43,980 bases of DNA from a virus. Within the stretch, counting starts at the first letter, position 1. Each line of letters opens with the position of its first letter. The notes beneath the pieces were generated by a model. It was not told where the DNA came from, made no database searches, and saw only the letters and a program-made list of their open reading frames with translations. A program made the position numbers and the translations under genes. The stretch spans positions 1-43,980 of the IMG/VR virus record IMGVR_UViG_3300045988_137699, one strand, 5' to 3'. Positions 1 through 43,980 of this stretch are shown here, in pieces.

Positions 1-85
1 ATTATATCATAAGAAAGCATAATTTGTAAAGATACTATTTTCAGTATTTTCAAGAGTTTGTTGAACAGTTCAACTCTTTAAAATG
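1..85. repeat. 85-bp direct terminal repeat, left copy, identical to 43896..43980
   Basis: Base-by-base comparison of attatatcataagaaagc...caactctttaaaatg at both window ends shows 85/85 identity. Confidence 0.95.
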
Positions 86-1910: not shown

Positions 1911-2027
1911 TTATTCTTCTGATGTTTCTTCATCCAAAATCTTTTTTACAGCTTTTTTTAATTTATCAGGAACATCATCAATTGTTTTCAATCCTTTTTT
2001 TATAAGGTTAGCATATATTTTTGCCAT
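1911..2027 (-). CDS. 38-aa XkdX-like small tail-associated protein (MAKIYANLIKKGLKTIDDVPDKLKKAVKKILDEETSEE)
   Basis: Hand translation; the ORF is below the ORF-track size cutoff. Its position after the fibre gene and its sequence pattern match small proteins common in PBSX-like clostridial prophages. Confidence 0.5.
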   Translation of the reverse strand: MAKIYANLIKKGLKTIDDVPDKLKKAVKKILDEETSEE

Positions 2028-2030
2028 TGA

Positions 2031-2285
2031 TTACACCCCCAAACTTTCATAAATTTCAACCAAAGCCATTTCGACATCTGTCATTTGATTTGATTGCATT
2101 TCAATATATTCATCTTTGGTGTATTGAATTAAATCATATTCATACATTTCTATTTTTTCATTTGAATCTGAATTTTCACTTTCTACTTCTATTTTATTGA
2201 TATTTTCAGAAATCCAAACAGAATATTCATCAATCACCATTTTTTCAGGTTTTATTGTACTTCTAACTTTACCATGATTTATCAT
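2031..2285 (-). CDS. 84-aa acidic protein (XkdW-position), unknown function, translationally coupled to the RT (ATGA overlap)
   Basis: ORF track. Its start overlaps the RT stop by 4 nt. It is strongly acidic and not Avd-like. Confidence 0.5.
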   Translation of the reverse strand: MINHGKVRSTIKPEKMVIDEYSVWISENINKIEVESENSDSNEKIEMYEYDLIQYTKDEYIEMQSNQMTDVEMALVEIYESLGV

Positions 2286-3373
2286 TTCTTTTCACCCTTC
2301 CTTTTTATATTTTTTAAATAATATTGATTAGAATGAAATTCAAGTGGTTTTATATATTTCTTTTGTAATCTATAACTATCACAATGAATTAACCATCCTT
2401 TATAAGAATTGATTGAACACCATTCTGAATAATTAATTTCATTACCACTTTTTATTTTATTTCTAATTTTATTCATTTTACTTTTAAAATTTTTGCAAGT
2501 TGATTTTCTTAATAACTTGTAATTTAAAAATGTTCTATATCCTACATAATCAATTCCCCTTACAAATGTTGGGAACACTTGCCAATTTTCTTTAATTTTT
2601 AATTTTAATTTTGTTTTAAAATATACATCAATTTCTTTTCTTAATTGATGTAATTTTTCTTTTGATTCGGCTAATATAACTATGTCATCCATATATCTGA
2701 AATAATATTTAATATGCTTTTCTTCTTTTATCCAATGGTCAAATGAAGAAAAATAAAAATTACCACTATATTGTGAAATATAATTTCCAATTGGTATTCC
2801 TGTATCACCTGGTGTTGAATCAATAATTTCATCAAGTAACCAAATCAAATCTTTATCTTTGAACAATTTTCTATACTTATTTTTTAATATTTCATGATTT
2901 ATTGATGGATAATACTTTTTGGCATCAATTTTCAAACAATATTGTGTACCTTTCACATCTGTTTGAATTGCTTTTTCAATTCTGTGTAATGCTTTATGTA
3001 TTCCCCTTCCTGGTATTGCTGAATAAGTATCAGTAATAAAATTTTTAACAAGTATTGGTTCAATTACTTGTAATATTGCCCATTGTGCAATTCTATCAGG
3101 ATAATATGGCAATTTATAAATTTTTCTTTCCTTCCCTGTATCATTCTTCATAAATGTTTCATATTCAGAAGTTTTATAAATTTTATTTATAAGCATATTT
3201 TGTAATTTTTTCAAATAATAATCAGGATTAGCATTAATTTCTTTTACTTCCTTATACCATCCTTTACCCTTTTGTGCATTTTTATGTGCAAGTTTCAAAT
3301 TATCCAAATCGCAAATTTTTTCATATAAATTTCCGTATCTTTTCATAATTTGCACTTCTTTCTTTGTATGCAT
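2282..3373 (-). CDS. DGR reverse transcriptase
   Basis: YMDD catalytic box (YFRYMDDIVILA). The DGR-typical motif IGNYISQ is present (IGxxxSQ). The N-terminus MKRYGNLYEKI is typical of DGR RTs, so the probable true start is 3346. The TR lies about 105 nt upstream. Confidence 0.92.
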   Translation of the reverse strand: MHTKKEVQIMKRYGNLYEKICDLDNLKLAHKNAQKGKGWYKEVKEINANPDYYLKKLQNMLINKIYKTSEYETFMKNDTGKERKIYKLPYYPDRIAQWAILQVIEPILVKNFITDTYSAIPGRGIHKALHRIEKAIQTDVKGTQYCLKIDAKKYYPSINHEILKNKYRKLFKDKDLIWLLDEIIDSTPGDTGIPIGNYISQYSGNFYFSSFDHWIKEEKHIKYYFRYMDDIVILAESKEKLHQLRKEIDVYFKTKLKLKIKENWQVFPTFVRGIDYVGYRTFLNYKLLRKSTCKNFKSKMNKIRNKIKSGNEINYSEWCSINSYKGWLIHCDSYRLQKKYIKPLEFHSNQYYLKNIKRKGEKK

Positions 3374-3477
3374 TTACAAACTAAACTTTCACCTTTTGAT
3401 TTCTCAAATTTACTAATATAGTTCATTGTATTTTTATATTTTGCCAAGTGGCAGGGCGAAAATTTTCACATGTTTAG

Positions 3478-3593
3478 CATTTACTAGGTGACCGCTGATA
3501 TTACGATTACGATTAGAAGTAGCATTATTAAGAATCCAACAGAAAGCACCAGCTGCAGAACCGTCAGACCAATTACCACCAAGATGAGTAACT
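3478..3593 (-). repeat. DGR template repeat (TR), non-coding
   Basis: Aligns without gaps to 3697..3812 at a constant offset of 219. In the target reading frame it contains 7 AAT codons. It is not inside any ORF. Confidence 0.92.
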
Positions 3594-3679
3594 GGTGATA
3601 ATTAAAACCTTTTTTAATTTTCTACTGTGATAATGGTATATCAGCACATTTCGCCCATATATTATTTAATTATTTTACA

Positions 3680-5491
3680 TTAAGCAGCATCAGGTACATA
3701 CACCAGGCGACCGCCGATATGACGATAACGATAAGAAGTAGCACCATTAAGAAACCAACAGAAAGCACCAGCCGCAGAACCGCCAGACCAATAACCACCA
3801 AGAAGAGCAACCTTCCAACCTGGATTGTTATTCCATACATAATCACCAACAGGTGTTGAACTATTTCCATTGTGTTCTGTTGGTATAAATAACCAATCAA
3901 AGTTTTCATTATATCCAAATGCTGAAATATATCCTTCACCAAAAGATGGACAAATTCCTGTTTCTTCATAAGGTGATGCACTTGTATCATCCGTAAATCC
4001 ATGGTCTGCTACATATGTTTTTCCATATTGACCTGCTGCAAATGGTGTTGGATTTTGAATATTTAATCCATCAATCCATTTCCAAATATTTCCCCATGGA
4101 TTTTCTTCACCACGATATGAAACAATTTGAATTCCATTTGCATTAGTTACAACACCTGATGTATTTCCAAGTGATATTGTTGCACCTGTATTTTCTGCCA
4201 TATTAGATGTACCATCATCTGTTTTACTTACTGCACCATTTCCAATTGCAGATTGCATGTTGAAAGTTGCATATTCAATAAGCATTAATAATTGTGTTGC
4301 AGAAACTGATGCTATATAATCTTGTTCCCAACCATTTCCCCTTTTTTGTGCTAATTTTCTTGTGTTTGCTCTTGTTAGATTTTGGGTTAATCCTGACATT
4401 GGTTTTGCATTTGCAATACTACATAACATGTCATTTGCAAAATCTGCAACTTGTGCATCATCAAGTATATATGCATTAGCAGATGCATCATATAATGAAC
4501 CTTCAAATGCACCCCTGTATATATAATCATGTTCTTTACCATTTCTTATAAATGCAGGATGAAGTTTAAATCCTGGTTCAGGTTCATCACATACATAATA
4601 TCTTGCTTTTCTCATATGATGTCCATGATTTTCACCTTCTGTTATTATATCTGTTAATAAAGGAACTACTTTATAATAAAATTTTGGTTGTTCAACCATA
4701 ACTTGTACTTTTGTTCCAACTGGATATGTACCTGCATTTCTTCCTTCTTCAATTGTAACTGCTTGTGTTAATGCACCAGTAGTTGTGAATGCTGCATCAC
4801 CATAATATGCAACAACTTTTCCAGTATCAGTAACATTACATCTTTTTCTACCACCAAAGCAATGAACATTATCAAATGCACTTCCACCAGTTTTTCCAAA
4901 AGCACCAGCTAATCTTGTAAATTTTTTATTTGTAAAATCAACTTCAACACCAAAAATATGGTCATCAACATATCCAATAAATGCTTGTAAATCTGAAATT
5001 TGTTTTTGTAAATCAACAATATCTCCCACTGTTGCTGTTGCTGCTTGGTCAACAGTAAGTGATACATTATTTGAATTTGAAACAGTTGTTGTTAATTTTA
5101 AAAATGCACCTGAAACACTTAATCCATTAAAAGGTGGCATATATGCACCTTTATCAGTTGTTGCAACACTAGCAACTGCATATAATATTTCACCTTCATC
5201 AGGGTCTTTTGCATATAATCCAATAGAATTCATATTATATCCACTTGTTAAATTAGAATTTTCCATTGCTGCTTCAATTTGAACTGCAACATTATTTGTT
5301 CTTGTTATTTTTGATATTTTTACTGTTTGTTTTATATTTGCTAAACTTGTCAAAGCAAGTATTTGTGCTTCTGTATAAACATTTGTTGATGAAGAAACTT
5401 TTGTAAATTCAACAGTTGTTTTTCCTGCAATTAATTTCGCCATTAAGGCTTGACCTTTATTTGTTATTGTTAATTTATTAAATTCAGCCAT
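3680..5491 (-). CDS. Tail fibre / receptor-binding protein with a C-terminal C-type-lectin/FGE-sulfatase-like fold; DGR target
   Basis: 603 aa in the last tail-module position. It carries the motif NPWGNIWKWIDG (the GNxWEW type found in FGE/CLec folds) and the C-terminus GGYWSGGSAAGAFCWFLNGATSYRYRHIGGRLVYV, which is typical of DGR variable proteins. Confidence 0.85.
   Translation of the reverse strand: MAEFNKLTITNKGQALMAKLIAGKTTVEFTKVSSSTNVYTEAQILALTSLANIKQTVKISKITRTNNVAVQIEAAMENSNLTSGYNMNSIGLYAKDPDEGEILYAVASVATTDKGAYMPPFNGLSVSGAFLKLTTTVSNSNNVSLTVDQAATATVGDIVDLQKQISDLQAFIGYVDDHIFGVEVDFTNKKFTRLAGAFGKTGGSAFDNVHCFGGRKRCNVTDTGKVVAYYGDAAFTTTGALTQAVTIEEGRNAGTYPVGTKVQVMVEQPKFYYKVVPLLTDIITEGENHGHHMRKARYYVCDEPEPGFKLHPAFIRNGKEHDYIYRGAFEGSLYDASANAYILDDAQVADFANDMLCSIANAKPMSGLTQNLTRANTRKLAQKRGNGWEQDYIASVSATQLLMLIEYATFNMQSAIGNGAVSKTDDGTSNMAENTGATISLGNTSGVVTNANGIQIVSYRGEENPWGNIWKWIDGLNIQNPTPFAAGQYGKTYVADHGFTDDTSASPYEETGICPSFGEGYISAFGYNENFDWLFIPTEHNGNSSTPVGDYVWNNNPGWKVALLGGYWSGGSAAGAFCWFLNGATSYRYRHIGGRLVYVPDAA
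3697..3812 (-). repeat. DGR variable repeat (VR), covering the last 38 codons before the final VPDAA of the tail-fibre gene
   Basis: 99/116 identical to TR. All 17 differences fall where TR has + strand T, which is A on the coding strand. Confidence 0.92.
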
Positions 5492-5509
5492 TTTATTTCA
5501 TCCTTTCTT

Positions 5510-6205
5510 TTAAATAATTTCTGTCAAATTAACATTTGACCCAATTTTATTTTCACCTTTAATATTAAATGTTTCATTAAAGTTATCTGTAATTTCTATT
5601 GTTAAAGTATCAGTTACACCACCTGCATATTTTGAATCATTATTTATATTCAAATTTTCTTTGAAGTTATCTGTAATTTCTATATAATTACAAAATACAA
5701 TACCACTTGCAATTCTTGTTGTACCATCTGTCATATTTAAAAATATTTTATTTTCAGATGTCAAATCAATATTAGCTGGTATCATATAATCAAGTATATA
5801 ATCCAATTCATCAACTTGTCCAGGTAGTTCAAGATGTGTAGTAATTTTCATTTTATATTCATTAAATTTTTTTTCAATTTCATAATTATCTTTTCCACAT
5901 AATACATCTAATTTTTGACATAAAACAATAAATGTATATGGTGCTGTATCATTCCATCTTGATAATACTCTTGAAATTCTTGATTCTAATGTATCATTTA
6001 TTTCAGGTGTAATTTTCATTAATTCTTCAAATTTTGCAATTCCTTTTAAATTACAACTTTGAATAAATTGGTTATTAAATATTATTTCTGTTTCATCTTC
6101 TAATGATTGAATTTCGGGATTTTCACTTTTCATTATTTCCCTTATTTCTCTATATTCTTGAATAAATAGTGGAAGATGATTCAATAGTTCTACTTCTCTA
6201 ATCAT
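5510..6205 (-). CDS. Baseplate/tail protein (XkdU-like, DUF2313-position)
   Basis: Synteny: it lies directly after the baseplate J-like gene and before the fibre. 231 aa. Confidence 0.5.
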   Translation of the reverse strand: MIREVELLNHLPLFIQEYREIREIMKSENPEIQSLEDETEIIFNNQFIQSCNLKGIAKFEELMKITPEINDTLESRISRVLSRWNDTAPYTFIVLCQKLDVLCGKDNYEIEKKFNEYKMKITTHLELPGQVDELDYILDYMIPANIDLTSENKIFLNMTDGTTRIASGIVFCNYIEITDNFKENLNINNDSKYAGGVTDTLTIEITDNFNETFNIKGENKIGSNVNLTEII

Positions 6206-29762: not shown

Positions 29763-30038
29763 CTATTTACAATGTTTTGTTATTTCTTCCATGTCAACAT
29801 CATTATCATTTAATTCATCATCAAAACCTTCCTTGATAATTTCTAATGTTTCAAGTTTTGTTTCTAATTTTTCAATTTCATTTTCTGTTTCAATTGTGCT
29901 TTTATTATGTTTTTCATTTATTTTAAGCAAATCATTCTGATATGCAATATCTTTCTTTACTTGTTCTATACTTTCAATTAAATATTCATTATGGTTATAT
30001 ATCACTTGAATCAAATCATCTTTTTCCACCTTTTTCAC
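29763..30038 (-). CDS. Hypothetical coiled-coil protein
   Basis: ORF track. Confidence 0.35.
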   Translation of the reverse strand: MKKVEKDDLIQVIYNHNEYLIESIEQVKKDIAYQNDLLKINEKHNKSTIETENEIEKLETKLETLEIIKEGFDDELNDNDVDMEEITKHCK

Positions 30039-30720
30039 CTTCTTTCTTGAATTTTTCTTCTAATTGTTCAACACTATAATCTGCCCTGAATTGGTTATAT
30101 GATTTTTTGTCCATTTCTTTTAATTCCTGCCATAATTCAGGATAGTATGTATATAAAATTTTTAATTCTTTAAGATTTTTTAATGGACAACACCAACAAC
30201 TTAATCTGTCAAAATGTTCATATAATCCATCCCAATAAAATCCTTTTTCATAACAACATTTTAGGCAATCTGCTTCTGTCATTTCATATTCAACTAATGG
30301 GTATCTTTTATCCCTAATTCTTTTTGGTTCATCATAAGCAATTCCAATATATTCTGTGTAACCTTCGTTTTTATATTTCTTTAAATAATCATTGATAACT
30401 TTGGTTTTTAAATTACTTGTACACCATCTGCAAAGCATCGTTGCCCAACCATATCCTTTTTTACCTTTGTTTTTTCCTTTTGTTTTTTCGTGTTCAAACA
30501 TATAATAATCAAAACTTTTTTCTGCTTTTATTCTAGTAATTTTCTTGTTATAATGTTTTTGAATATAATCATCAAATTTATTTATATGGTCAATCATTTG
30601 TGGAAAATCTTTACCTGTATCAGCAAAAATAATTTCATCAACCCACCATCCATCTTCTAGCATTTTCAATGTCATTGCTGTGCTATCTTTACCACCACTA
30701 AAATTGATTATATGTTTCAT
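30016..30720 (-). CDS. PAPS-reductase-family PP-loop ATPase
   Basis: The N-terminus NFSGGKDSTAM is the SGGKDS PP-loop. There is a C-terminal Cys cluster, RLSCWCCPLKN. Confidence 0.7.
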   Translation of the reverse strand: MKHIINFSGGKDSTAMTLKMLEDGWWVDEIIFADTGKDFPQMIDHINKFDDYIQKHYNKKITRIKAEKSFDYYMFEHEKTKGKNKGKKGYGWATMLCRWCTSNLKTKVINDYLKKYKNEGYTEYIGIAYDEPKRIRDKRYPLVEYEMTEADCLKCCYEKGFYWDGLYEHFDRLSCWCCPLKNLKELKILYTYYPELWQELKEMDKKSYNQFRADYSVEQLEEKFKKEGEKGGKR

Positions 30721-31595
30721 TGCACATCACCTTCTTTCAATCCTTTAAAAATATGTGCAATTACATCAACTGTCCAACCATCACCAATTACATTTGATGC
30801 TTGATGTTTTGTAAGCATTTTTGTATAACCAATAGGTAATGTCTGACCTTGTTCTAATTCTTCGGTTGTTAAATATCTGCAAAAATCTTCAAATTCAATT
30901 AGTCCTGCATTTTTCCATCTGTCTTGCCTTGTGGTTATACAATTTATTTTGGTTGCATTTGTTATATTTGGACAATTTCCATTTATACCATCACCCCACA
31001 TTTTAATTCTTGAAGGTGTTTTGTTAACTTTAAATTCCTTGCATTTTTCATAGTCTTTGCATATGTAATCTTGAAAATTTATATGTCTATCTTGTGGCTG
31101 TGTTACATTTGGAATGTTTGTCCAATAATATCTATTGCGATTTTGATAACTAACCAAATTTGAATTTATTTCAATTGGTTCAACACCAAGAATACTGCTA
31201 ATAAGCTGTTTGTCTTGTTTACTCATATTTGCAACATTTTCTAATAAAAAATATTTTGGTTTTAATTGTTTCAATATTCTTACATATTCATAAAACAAAC
31301 TACTTTTTTGACCATCCAATCCTTCCCTTTTATCTTTTACCATTACAACTGCAATTGATAAATCTTGACAAGGACTTCCACCAATCAATAAATCAATTTT
31401 ATCCAACTTACTTAAATCTAATTTTGTAACATCACCAATTTGAATTGTGTTTGGGAAGTTTTCTTGTGTGCATTTAATTGCTGATGGTTTTATTTCACTT
31501 GCATAATATTTGTCAACTTTCATTCCTGCCCTTTGAAGTGCAATTTGTCCACAACTTATTCCATCAAATAGACTTAACACATTCATGCTTATCAT
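30717..31595 (-). CDS. DNA (cytosine-5)-methyltransferase
   Basis: Motif I LFDGISCG, motif IV GGSPCQDLS, motif VI LLENV. The probable start is MNVLSLF at 31586. Confidence 0.85.
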   Translation of the reverse strand: MISMNVLSLFDGISCGQIALQRAGMKVDKYYASEIKPSAIKCTQENFPNTIQIGDVTKLDLSKLDKIDLLIGGSPCQDLSIAVVMVKDKREGLDGQKSSLFYEYVRILKQLKPKYFLLENVANMSKQDKQLISSILGVEPIEINSNLVSYQNRNRYYWTNIPNVTQPQDRHINFQDYICKDYEKCKEFKVNKTPSRIKMWGDGINGNCPNITNATKINCITTRQDRWKNAGLIEFEDFCRYLTTEELEQGQTLPIGYTKMLTKHQASNVIGDGWTVDVIAHIFKGLKEGDVQ

Positions 31596-43895: not shown

Positions 43896-43980
43896 ATTAT
43901 ATCATAAGAAAGCATAATTTGTAAAGATACTATTTTCAGTATTTTCAAGAGTTTGTTGAACAGTTCAACTCTTTAAAATG
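43896..43980. repeat. 85-bp direct terminal repeat, right copy
   Basis: Identical to 1..85. Confidence 0.95.

Follow-up and report, generated by a model that had tools for sequence, protein, structure and literature searches.

A very probably functional accessory-free diversity-generating retroelement in the tail module of a temperate phage of human-gut Clostridia

The viral sequence analysed here, IMG/VR record IMGVR_UViG_3300045988_137699 (positions 1 to 43,980, hereafter the window, meaning this whole stretch of 43,980 nt), carries on its minus strand a diversity-generating retroelement (DGR), composed of a tail-fibre gene with a variable repeat (VR), a template repeat (TR) and a reverse transcriptase (RT) gene. 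The DGR is real and almost certainly recently active, and we consider it very probable (about 0.92) that it is a functional, accessory-free element of the order target-VR-TR-RT (architecture A1), belonging to the tail module of a phage that is complete, temperate and contractile-tailed and whose hosts are human-gut Clostridia. An exact 85-nt terminal direct repeat (1..85 and 43896..43980) indicates that the window is a complete phage genome, assembled as a circle of 43,895 bp. The element is a typical member of the large and already described class of accessory-free phage tail-fibre DGRs.

The evidence starts with the repeat pair. By a script run on the window, TR and VR were aligned over 116 bp, at an offset of 219 throughout and with no gap (plus-strand positions 3478..3593 and 3697..3812, respectively). 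The copies differ at 17 positions, and the TR base at each of them is a plus-strand T, that is, an adenine on the coding minus strand. The TR is composed of 26 adenines and 90 other bases, none of the latter being mismatched (0/90), and the hypergeometric probability of all 17 mismatches falling on A sites is 3.1e-14. In the VR these adenines are replaced by G (ten times), T (six times) and C (once). The VR encodes residues 561-598 near the 3' end of the 603-aa fibre gene, and the non-coding TR, with ATTATCACC as its 5' flank, lies 103 nt away, in the 306 nt that separate the stop of the fibre gene from the start of the RT gene. No third copy was detected in the 44-kb window by a low-stringency search with the TR, which leaves a single VR. 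An earlier sequence-only reading of this DNA (the original prediction) had listed the same offset, the same 17 coordinates and the same 26/90 split, all of which were reproduced by the script; the TR and VR peptides it quoted can be derived from the sequences, as can the seven AAT codons in frame and the 12 exchanged amino acids, six of them at AAT codons, and the non-adenine mismatches that it had proposed to look for are absent from the 90 positions.

An ordinary tandem-like duplication, with an A-bias arising by chance or from the mutational bias of an AT-rich genome, might be proposed instead, since A/T-directed change is common in a genome of 27% GC. However, all 17 differences are restricted to a single strand of a single copy and to its 26 A sites (P = 3e-14), and the exchanges from A to G, T or C run against the compositional bias of the 27.4% GC genome, the VR itself having a GC content of 50%. 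Moreover, the same asymmetry is found beside the RT in 73 related loci, so that the probability of this explanation is negligible.

These related loci were collected by a scan of IMG/VR, from which 80 of 279 RT relatives were kept and, together with phage Perkons, analysed as a set of 81 loci. Of the 81, 73 proved in a self-comparison by script to contain a repeat pair with an A-bias, always in the same layout of VR, about 100 nt, TR, about 100-250 nt and RT; seven of the eight loci lacking a pair contain less than 600 nt upstream of the RT. Relatives with 87-97% RT identity consist only of uncultivated IMG/VR and metagenome contigs, and megablast gave no DNA-level match of positions 2000..5600 to GenBank phages, among which Psychrobacillus phage Perkons encodes the closest RT (58.6%). 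Two relatives with the common spacer sequence are found in metagenome-assembled genomes (MAGs) labelled Clostridia and Clostridium, and the others are human-gut metagenome contigs.

The closest relatives are L002 (identical to L085) and L090, whose VR-TR and TR-RT intergenic sequences are 100% identical to those of the window. Within three sister lineages that have identical TRs and come from different samples, VR polymorphisms fell on TR-A sites in 15/15, 22/23 and 15/15 cases (52/53 in all). The activity claimed in the original prediction is thus borne out by relatives that share a TR and carry VRs differing at its A sites. Furthermore, lineage-specific non-adenine substitutions of the TR are mirrored in the cognate VR, which shows TR-to-VR transfer after the lineages had split. 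On the protein level, 603-aa fibres with about 91% identity to the query fall into more than 60 separate clusters at 90% identity in the database, and the column entropy among 65 close fibre homologues amounts to 0.94 bits in residues 560-598 versus 0.035 elsewhere, with 13 hypervariable VR columns that hold up to 15 different residues each. Rare deviations from the canonical pattern were seen in the VRs of relatives: one non-adenine polymorphism, T to G, at nt 53 of the L091 VR, and a two-codon deletion inside the VR of the fibre homologue P0046 (YRY--IGG).

Not all mismatches between the repeats are products of this process. The VR of the window ends with the G-rich sequence GCGGTCGCCTGGTGTATG, the initiation of mutagenic homing site (IMH; 3697..3714, minus strand), and the TR ends with GCGGTCACCTAGTAAATG, its counterpart IMH* (repeat nt 99-116, + 3478..3495). 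Across dozens of divergent loci the last approximately 18 nt read GCGGTCGCCTGGTGTATG in the VR and GC(G/A)GTCACCTAGTAAATG in the TR, and the mismatches closest to the 3' end, at repeat nt 105, 109, 112 and 113 (+ 3489, 3485, 3482 and 3481), recur in almost all VR/TR pairs. Some of the fixed A-to-G differences are at synonymous third positions (CTA/CTG, GTA/GTG); selection on the protein can therefore not explain them, and these positions are never overwritten. Nucleotides 105, 109, 112 and 113 thus constitute the fixed IMH/IMH* distinction and are not products of mutagenesis. Nucleotide 98 (+ 3496) may be a fifth such difference; its change from AGC to GGC encodes an invariant Gly, and the A is kept in one relative. 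With four to five fixed positions, 12-13 of the 17 mismatches fall in the part that is truly rewritten (repeat nt 1-98, 3715..3812 on the minus strand, approximately fibre residues 561-593), which is also marked by the column entropy. Considered alone, the rewritten part has 12/12 mismatches on 19 adenines among 94 nt (P = 1e-10). The attribution of all 17 mismatches to adenine mutagenesis has therefore to be narrowed: it stands for the 12-13 of the rewritten part, and the remaining four or five belong to the IMH/IMH* distinction.

The RT gene (2282..3373, minus strand) encodes a protein of 363 aa with a pI of 9.6 that matches RVT_1 and phrog_1423 (1e-129). Its best match in the PDB is the Bordetella RT bRT (8ub7; 114 bits, E = 7e-32), followed by group II and retron-type RTs with at most 59 bits (E = 5e-15 for the next class). 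The open reading frame (ORF) is intact and all catalytic motifs are present, with IGNYISQ at residue 195 and YMDD at residue 227; IPIGNYISQ aligns with IPIGSLTSQ of bRT, and RYMDDIV is common to both proteins. In bRT, residues I181, G182 and Q187 of the IG..SQ motif touch the template base and the incoming nucleotide (Handa et al.). With bRT as the best solved relative and both IG..SQ (motif 4) and YMDD present and aligned, the assignment to the DGR-type RTs made from the sequence alone was confirmed. A descent from some other kind of retroelement or from a defence system (retron, group II intron or Abi/DRT), to which the repeats would be adjacent only incidentally, finds some backing in the NCBIfam search, where a group II intron RT/maturase model ranked first with 110 bits, and in PADLOC, which lists generic RT and UG/DRT models for this protein. 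Nevertheless, the NCBIfam scores stay far under their cut-offs (110 versus 300 for group II, 63 versus 200 for Drt3a, 40 versus 235 for retron St85 and 53 versus 390 for Drt2), the best PADLOC match is only a generic RT model, and the bRT score is twice that of any group II or retron-type RT. In addition, an Rfam scan of the window found neither group II intron RNA nor retron RNA, its sole RNA match being the motif RT-17 between TR and RT, and TR/VR pairs accompany the RT throughout the family. We regard such a descent as highly improbable, and the RT as that of a DGR.

The target gene (3680..5491, minus strand) encodes a 603-aa tail-fibre protein, which matches phrog_5302 'tail protein' over its full length (1e-180) and has 4438 homologues in the protein database. 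The N-terminus is a tail-collar fibre domain (Pfam Phage_tail_fib, PF12571, residues 6-151), and the C-terminus with the VR is a ligand-binding domain of the FGE-type C-type-lectin (CLec) fold, covering the last 300 residues (3683..4582, minus strand) as judged by AlphaFold2, Foldseek and a profile search. A diverse alignment, for which homologues were gathered with a profile built from 34 diverse C-termini of the family, gave an AlphaFold2 model of these 300 residues with a pLDDT of 93.4 and a pTM of 0.90; a full-length model from 81 close homologues reached a pLDDT of 35.9 and was unusable. Foldseek ranked TaqVP (5vf4, E = 3e-10) first, followed by five Mtd variants (1yu*, probability 0.98-0.99), PvdO and TvpA (2y3c). 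The profile of the 34 C-termini, searched against the PDB, retrieved only TaqVP (5VF4, E = 1e-4) via the GN(I/V)W(K/E)W segment and the VR, and the identity of 5VF4 as a Thermus DGR variable protein with an FGE-type CLec fold was confirmed; in the fibre this segment is GNIWKW, at residue 467 (+ 4076..4093). In BFVD, the best matches of the C-terminal model are tail-collar fibres of uncultivated gut phages including crAss-like ones (TM 0.7-0.8). A single-sequence search of the PDB with the fibre and a Pfam search with the 34 C-terminal domains gave nothing relevant, so that the CLec assignment is owed to the profile and fold searches. A tail-fibre target with a CLec/FGE-like C-terminus, as originally predicted, is consequently supported by phrog_5302, Pfam, the model and the Foldseek matches, and in the structural comparison proposed at that time both Mtd and TvpA appeared among the top matches.

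The RNA around the TR is predicted to be structured. The sequence GGGCGAAA (3649..3656, minus strand), 56 nt upstream of the TR, is complementary to UUUCGCCC (3454..3461, minus strand), 16 nt past the TR end, and the resulting 8-bp helix, which encloses the TR, was recovered by an unconstrained minimum free energy (MFE) fold of the 307-nt region. It is followed by a 4-bp hairpin, UGCC-ACUU-GGCA, with an A-rich tail (3428..3453, minus strand). Free RNAduplex predictions between the TR flanks were noisy, with over-extended interactions and poor z-scores, and an anchored helix test and column-based covariation counts were used in their place. Among 57 non-redundant loci, the contiguous helix had a median length of 10 bp for cognate versus 5 bp for non-cognate strands. 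In an unfitted MAFFT alignment of 31 sequences, 84.5% of cells were paired, compared with 66.7% in shuffled and 32-48% in slid controls, and compensatory changes were found in 13 of the 16 pairs; the hairpin itself was paired in 100% of cells, with three of its four pairs compensatory. The covariation score was 0.461 versus 0.164 for shuffled and at most 0.136 for slid alignments, and none of 500 shuffles (0/500) scored as high.

The order of duplex, hairpin and A-tract in the window RNA is that of the cPRT Stop of the Bordetella ribonucleoprotein (RNP), in which an upstream:spacer duplex, a short stem-loop and adenosines with A-minor contacts were seen by cryo-electron microscopy, and which was surveyed only in Avd-containing DGRs (Handa et al.). 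The Avd-binding stem-loop of Bordetella has no counterpart here, the duplex strand being only 16 nt away from the TR. The covariation across the family shows that the duplex-hairpin-adenosine element has been retained in an Avd-less group from which the Avd-binding stem-loop is missing. The TR-RT spacer also gave a full-length match to the Rfam RNA RT-17 (RF03020) at 3364..3458 on the minus strand (63.3 bits versus a gathering score of 40.4, E = 3.7e-10). The motifs RT-1 to RT-19 were found near RT genes, and only RT-10 was tied to a DGR, that of BPP-1, with the speculation that others serve further DGRs (Weinberg et al. 2017). The orphan motif RT-17 coincides with the TR-RT spacer in this Avd-less DGR group, and a likely function is thereby assigned to it.

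A candidate primer strand, GUGA (3466..3469, minus strand), is contained in the conserved AUGUGAAA just 5' of the downstream duplex strand and may pair with TR U103-C106, in analogy to the Bordetella pairing Sp53-56:TR118-121. Compensatory variants of this pairing were found as UCGC:GCGA in L026 and as CCAC:GUGG in L053/L054. By this analogy, GUGA would be the likely primer, with cDNA synthesis starting at G102. Such a start would make A98 the first mutable adenine and leave A105 and everything beyond it uncopied, in agreement with the fixed IMH/IMH* positions.

Taken together with the Bordetella system, from which cis-priming, the exact start site and retrohoming are inferred, these data suggest the following course. 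The minus strand would be transcribed through the fibre gene, the TR and the gene for the RT, and the RNA around the TR would fold by pairing of GGGCGAAA with UUUCGCCC, followed by the 4-bp hairpin and the adenosine tract. The RT would bind this folded RNA and prime cDNA in cis from the spacer, probably at GUGA:TR U103-C106 with G102 as the first templated base, and would then copy the TR towards its 5' end, with misincorporation opposite adenines. The cDNA would replace the VR from nt 1 to about nt 98, upstream of the G-rich IMH, and some 12 codons would thereby be rewritten, for residues on the face with which the C-terminal CLec domain binds its ligand, which would change the host range.

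The experimental prototype, the BPP-1 DGR of Bordetella (mtd-VR, avd, TR, brt), shares with the window the adenine-specific TR-to-VR transfer, the VR at the 3' end of the gene for a receptor-binding protein of FGE-type CLec fold, and the G-rich IMH as opposed to IMH*. The RTs agree in IG..SQ and YMDD, the BPP-1 enzyme being the closest solved structure, and the RNAs agree in the distal upstream/downstream duplex, the short stem-loop and the adenosines. In contrast to the window, BPP-1 has an avd gene and an Avd-binding stem-loop after the TR (Sp3-33), and the distance from the TR end to the duplex strand is 58 nt instead of 16 nt. The window further differs from BPP-1 in that the TR directly follows the VR (103 nt), no inverted repeat is found after the IMH, the spacer motif is RT-17 and not the RT-10 reported for BPP-1, a Gram-positive gut anaerobe serves as host and the virion is of the PBSX-like myovirus type. 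TaqVP of a Thermus aquaticus prophage resembles the fibre in its FGE-type CLec fold, in the VR forming the C-terminal strands and in GNvWEW, which aligns with GNIWKW; it shows only 14-17% identity, is a single-domain monomer and belongs to an Avd-containing DGR, whereas the CLec domain of the window caps a 603-aa tail fibre. DGRs of gut phages (crAss-like cr55_1, cr6_1 and cr7_1, Lactobacillus LBR48 and Faecalibacterium phages) and of Perkons have RTs 40-59% identical to that of the window, and the tail-fibre C-terminal domains of the gut-phage DGRs have the same fold according to BFVD. Perkons also has the VR-TR-RT layout, with 32/32 mismatches at A.

The absence of Avd is strongly, but not absolutely, shown. 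No match to Avd/23S_rRNA_IVP was obtained by Pfam among 37 proteins of the window, about 25 small ORFs of the window lying outside that scan, and a gene would not fit into the 103 nt between VR and TR. The window thereby falls into the accessory-free class. Not every DGR is defined by Avd: Architecture A, which comprises DGRs without accessory genes, accounts for 75 of 372 DGRs, compared with about 68% of DGRs having Avd, which is essential in Bordetella (PMC5758913). RT Lineage 3 lacks avd, and an Avd-independent variant of retrohoming has been suggested (Wu et al. 2018, PMC5758913). Like the A1 elements of Wu et al. (2018), the window has target, VR, TR and RT on one strand and no avd, HRDC, MSL or CH1 gene, a likeness that is drawn from gene order. 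It differs from them in an acidic ORF of 84 aa (pI 4.2, phrog_18126; 2031..2285, minus strand) after the RT, with whose stop codon it overlaps by 4 nt. In about 59 related loci, with RT identities as low as 52%, a homologue of this ORF follows directly downstream of the RT; no match was found by tblastn in GenBank phages or in Pfam or PADLOC. CH1 was ruled out on size, being 160-169 aa long. The product could be a DGR accessory factor that replaces Avd, or a tail-fibre chaperone, and whether the ORF is part of the element at all is uncertain.

The TR of the window has a history of its own. It differs from the TR of L002/L090 at 12 positions, compared with none in 207 nt of the flanks; 11 of the 12 differences affect sister-TR adenines (P = 1e-5), and all 11 are confined to repeat nt 17-60 (3534..3577, minus strand), where the TR resembles a VR. 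The codons of this patch read G-N-W-S-D-G-S-A-A-G-A-F-C-W-I, with Gly, Gly, Ala and Ala at positions at least 90% conserved among VRs and occupied by Ser, Ser, Thr and Thr in the sister TRs, and with a Cys at 578, where VRs mostly have Cys or Tyr and the sister TRs Tyr. Since random loss of adenines would not rebuild a selected VR allele, the simplest reading of the alignment is that a VR-derived patch overwrote part of the TR. An independent patch was found in the TR of L004/L084 (codons 561-574). Four adenine-site differences between VR and TR of the window lie inside the patch, which implies that homing continued after the patch had arisen. The theoretical repertoire of the window amounts to about 10^10.1 proteins, compared with about 10^16.7 in the sister phages.

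The same phage was found in run ERR414351 by an exact-sequence look-up of the RT, on the contigs L095, L096 and L097. L096 (NCBI ULTU01011030.1) is 100% identical to the window including the TR, and the contig breaks inside the VR. A chimeric assembly of the window TR is unlikely, given that the TR of L096, an independent record, is identical and that both VR-type alleles match the TR at the 11 changed positions. Positions 1..75 of L096 begin in the conserved core of the VR, a break of the type expected if the VR was heterogeneous in the sampled population. Two independent assemblies, L095 (2781..2896) and L097 (24..139), are identical to the window outside the repeats and contain a single VR/TR hybrid repeat, with 219 bp missing. 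The hybrid consists of the fibre 5' flank, a mutagenised repeat and the TR-type 3' end with the spacer; its allele has non-TR bases at ten TR-A sites and differs from the window VR at nine positions, all of them TR-A. The junction falls within GCGGTC (nt 99-104), which is the normal boundary of information transfer, and its k-mers occur in neither parental repeat, so that the reads must contain the junction. The hybrid could be a real 219-bp deletion between VR and TR, a cDNA homed into the TR with alleles joined by the assemblers through the shared 38-nt core, or a chimera.

A bolder interpretation of patch and hybrid is that information flows backwards from VR to TR in this Avd-less lineage, with templates eroding their own adenines. 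We put this forward only tentatively and hold it to be less probable than its denial. If the patches came from mis-homing of cDNA into the TR or from VR-to-TR conversion, the repertoire would be a decaying resource that selection must renew, and mis-homing, if it occurs, would be permitted by the weak IMH/IMH* distinction of only four to five A/G differences. Separately, on this bolder reading, the conserved cPRT-Stop-like RNA without an Avd-binding stem-loop would show that the RT is able to assemble the priming RNP alone or together with the acidic ORF product. The eroded TR and the hybrid repeat hint at templates that are less invariant than in the textbook model.

Several observations weigh against a functional element. 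Eleven of the 37 sister-TR adenines are gone from the window TR, which could mean that the element is decaying, and the exact TR of the window (as a 59-mer) had 0 matches in each of the viral, genome and metagenome collections. Diversification from this very TR is shown only indirectly, by one extra allele within the hybrid contigs. The proposed primer-template pairing is only 4 bp long, and its cognate energy (-4.8) is not better than the non-cognate one (-4.4). To our knowledge, no DGR has had cDNA synthesis independent of Avd demonstrated by biochemistry. Neither a GC-rich inverted repeat after the IMH, in the AT-rich 103-nt gap, nor a terminator-like site after the VR was found. Such an inverted repeat is required for efficient homing in Bordetella and Legionella, and is present in only 34% of DGRs (PMC5758913).

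Some of these points would suit a relic, in which the TR/VR pattern is the fossil of past mutagenic homing and the element is dead or on its way out. With 11/37 adenines lost, the repertoire has shrunk more than a million-fold, no other sample yielded the exact TR, and the hybrid in the assemblies of the same phage would delete the TR 5' flank and truncate the native fibre C-terminus. On the other hand, the RT ORF is intact with all its catalytic motifs, sister phages with VRs that vary from sample to sample have the very same RNA elements, which are intact in the window, the four A-site differences inside the converted patch date homing after the patch, and a second allele templated by the window TR exists. 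We therefore judge a relic improbable, though less so than the other alternatives considered above, and favour a functional DGR.

The element adds one member to a class that has been surveyed in hundreds, and the known picture is unchanged by it. Its value lies in being a clean, complete and compact example, with a circular genome of 43.9 kb, a single VR, a TR-to-duplex spacing of 16 nt, no gene for an accessory protein and many natural relatives, and hence a convenient system for studying how a DGR RT works without Avd. Its noteworthy features are the fixed IMH/IMH* positions, the cPRT-Stop-like RNA, which lacks an Avd-binding element, with its link to RT-17, the eroded TR and the hybrid repeat. 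The fixed positions, the conserved RNA structure, the partial erosion of the TR and the absence of Avd had gone unnoticed in the original prediction.

The remaining genome accords with the phage type originally predicted, a temperate, PBSX-like and contractile-tailed phage of a low-GC host, as indicated by the integrase and repressors, the tail genes, the GC content of 27.4% and the Clostridia MAGs. The genes include an integrase, HTH regulators/repressors, an SNF2 helicase, a PD-(D/E)XK/AAA_24 protein, a PolB-like protein, a D5-type primase-helicase, a C5 methylase and a terminase, and the lysin combines Amidase_2 with CW_7. The tail module encodes a sheath initiator, an XkdN-like chaperone, a DUF2001 tube protein, baseplate J and a Mu gp48-like protein. 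In the replication module, at 30016..31595 (minus strand), a protein of 234 aa with a PAPS-reductase domain is encoded beside the C5 cytosine DNA methylase (292 aa), and the two may form a DNA-modification or anti-restriction pair.

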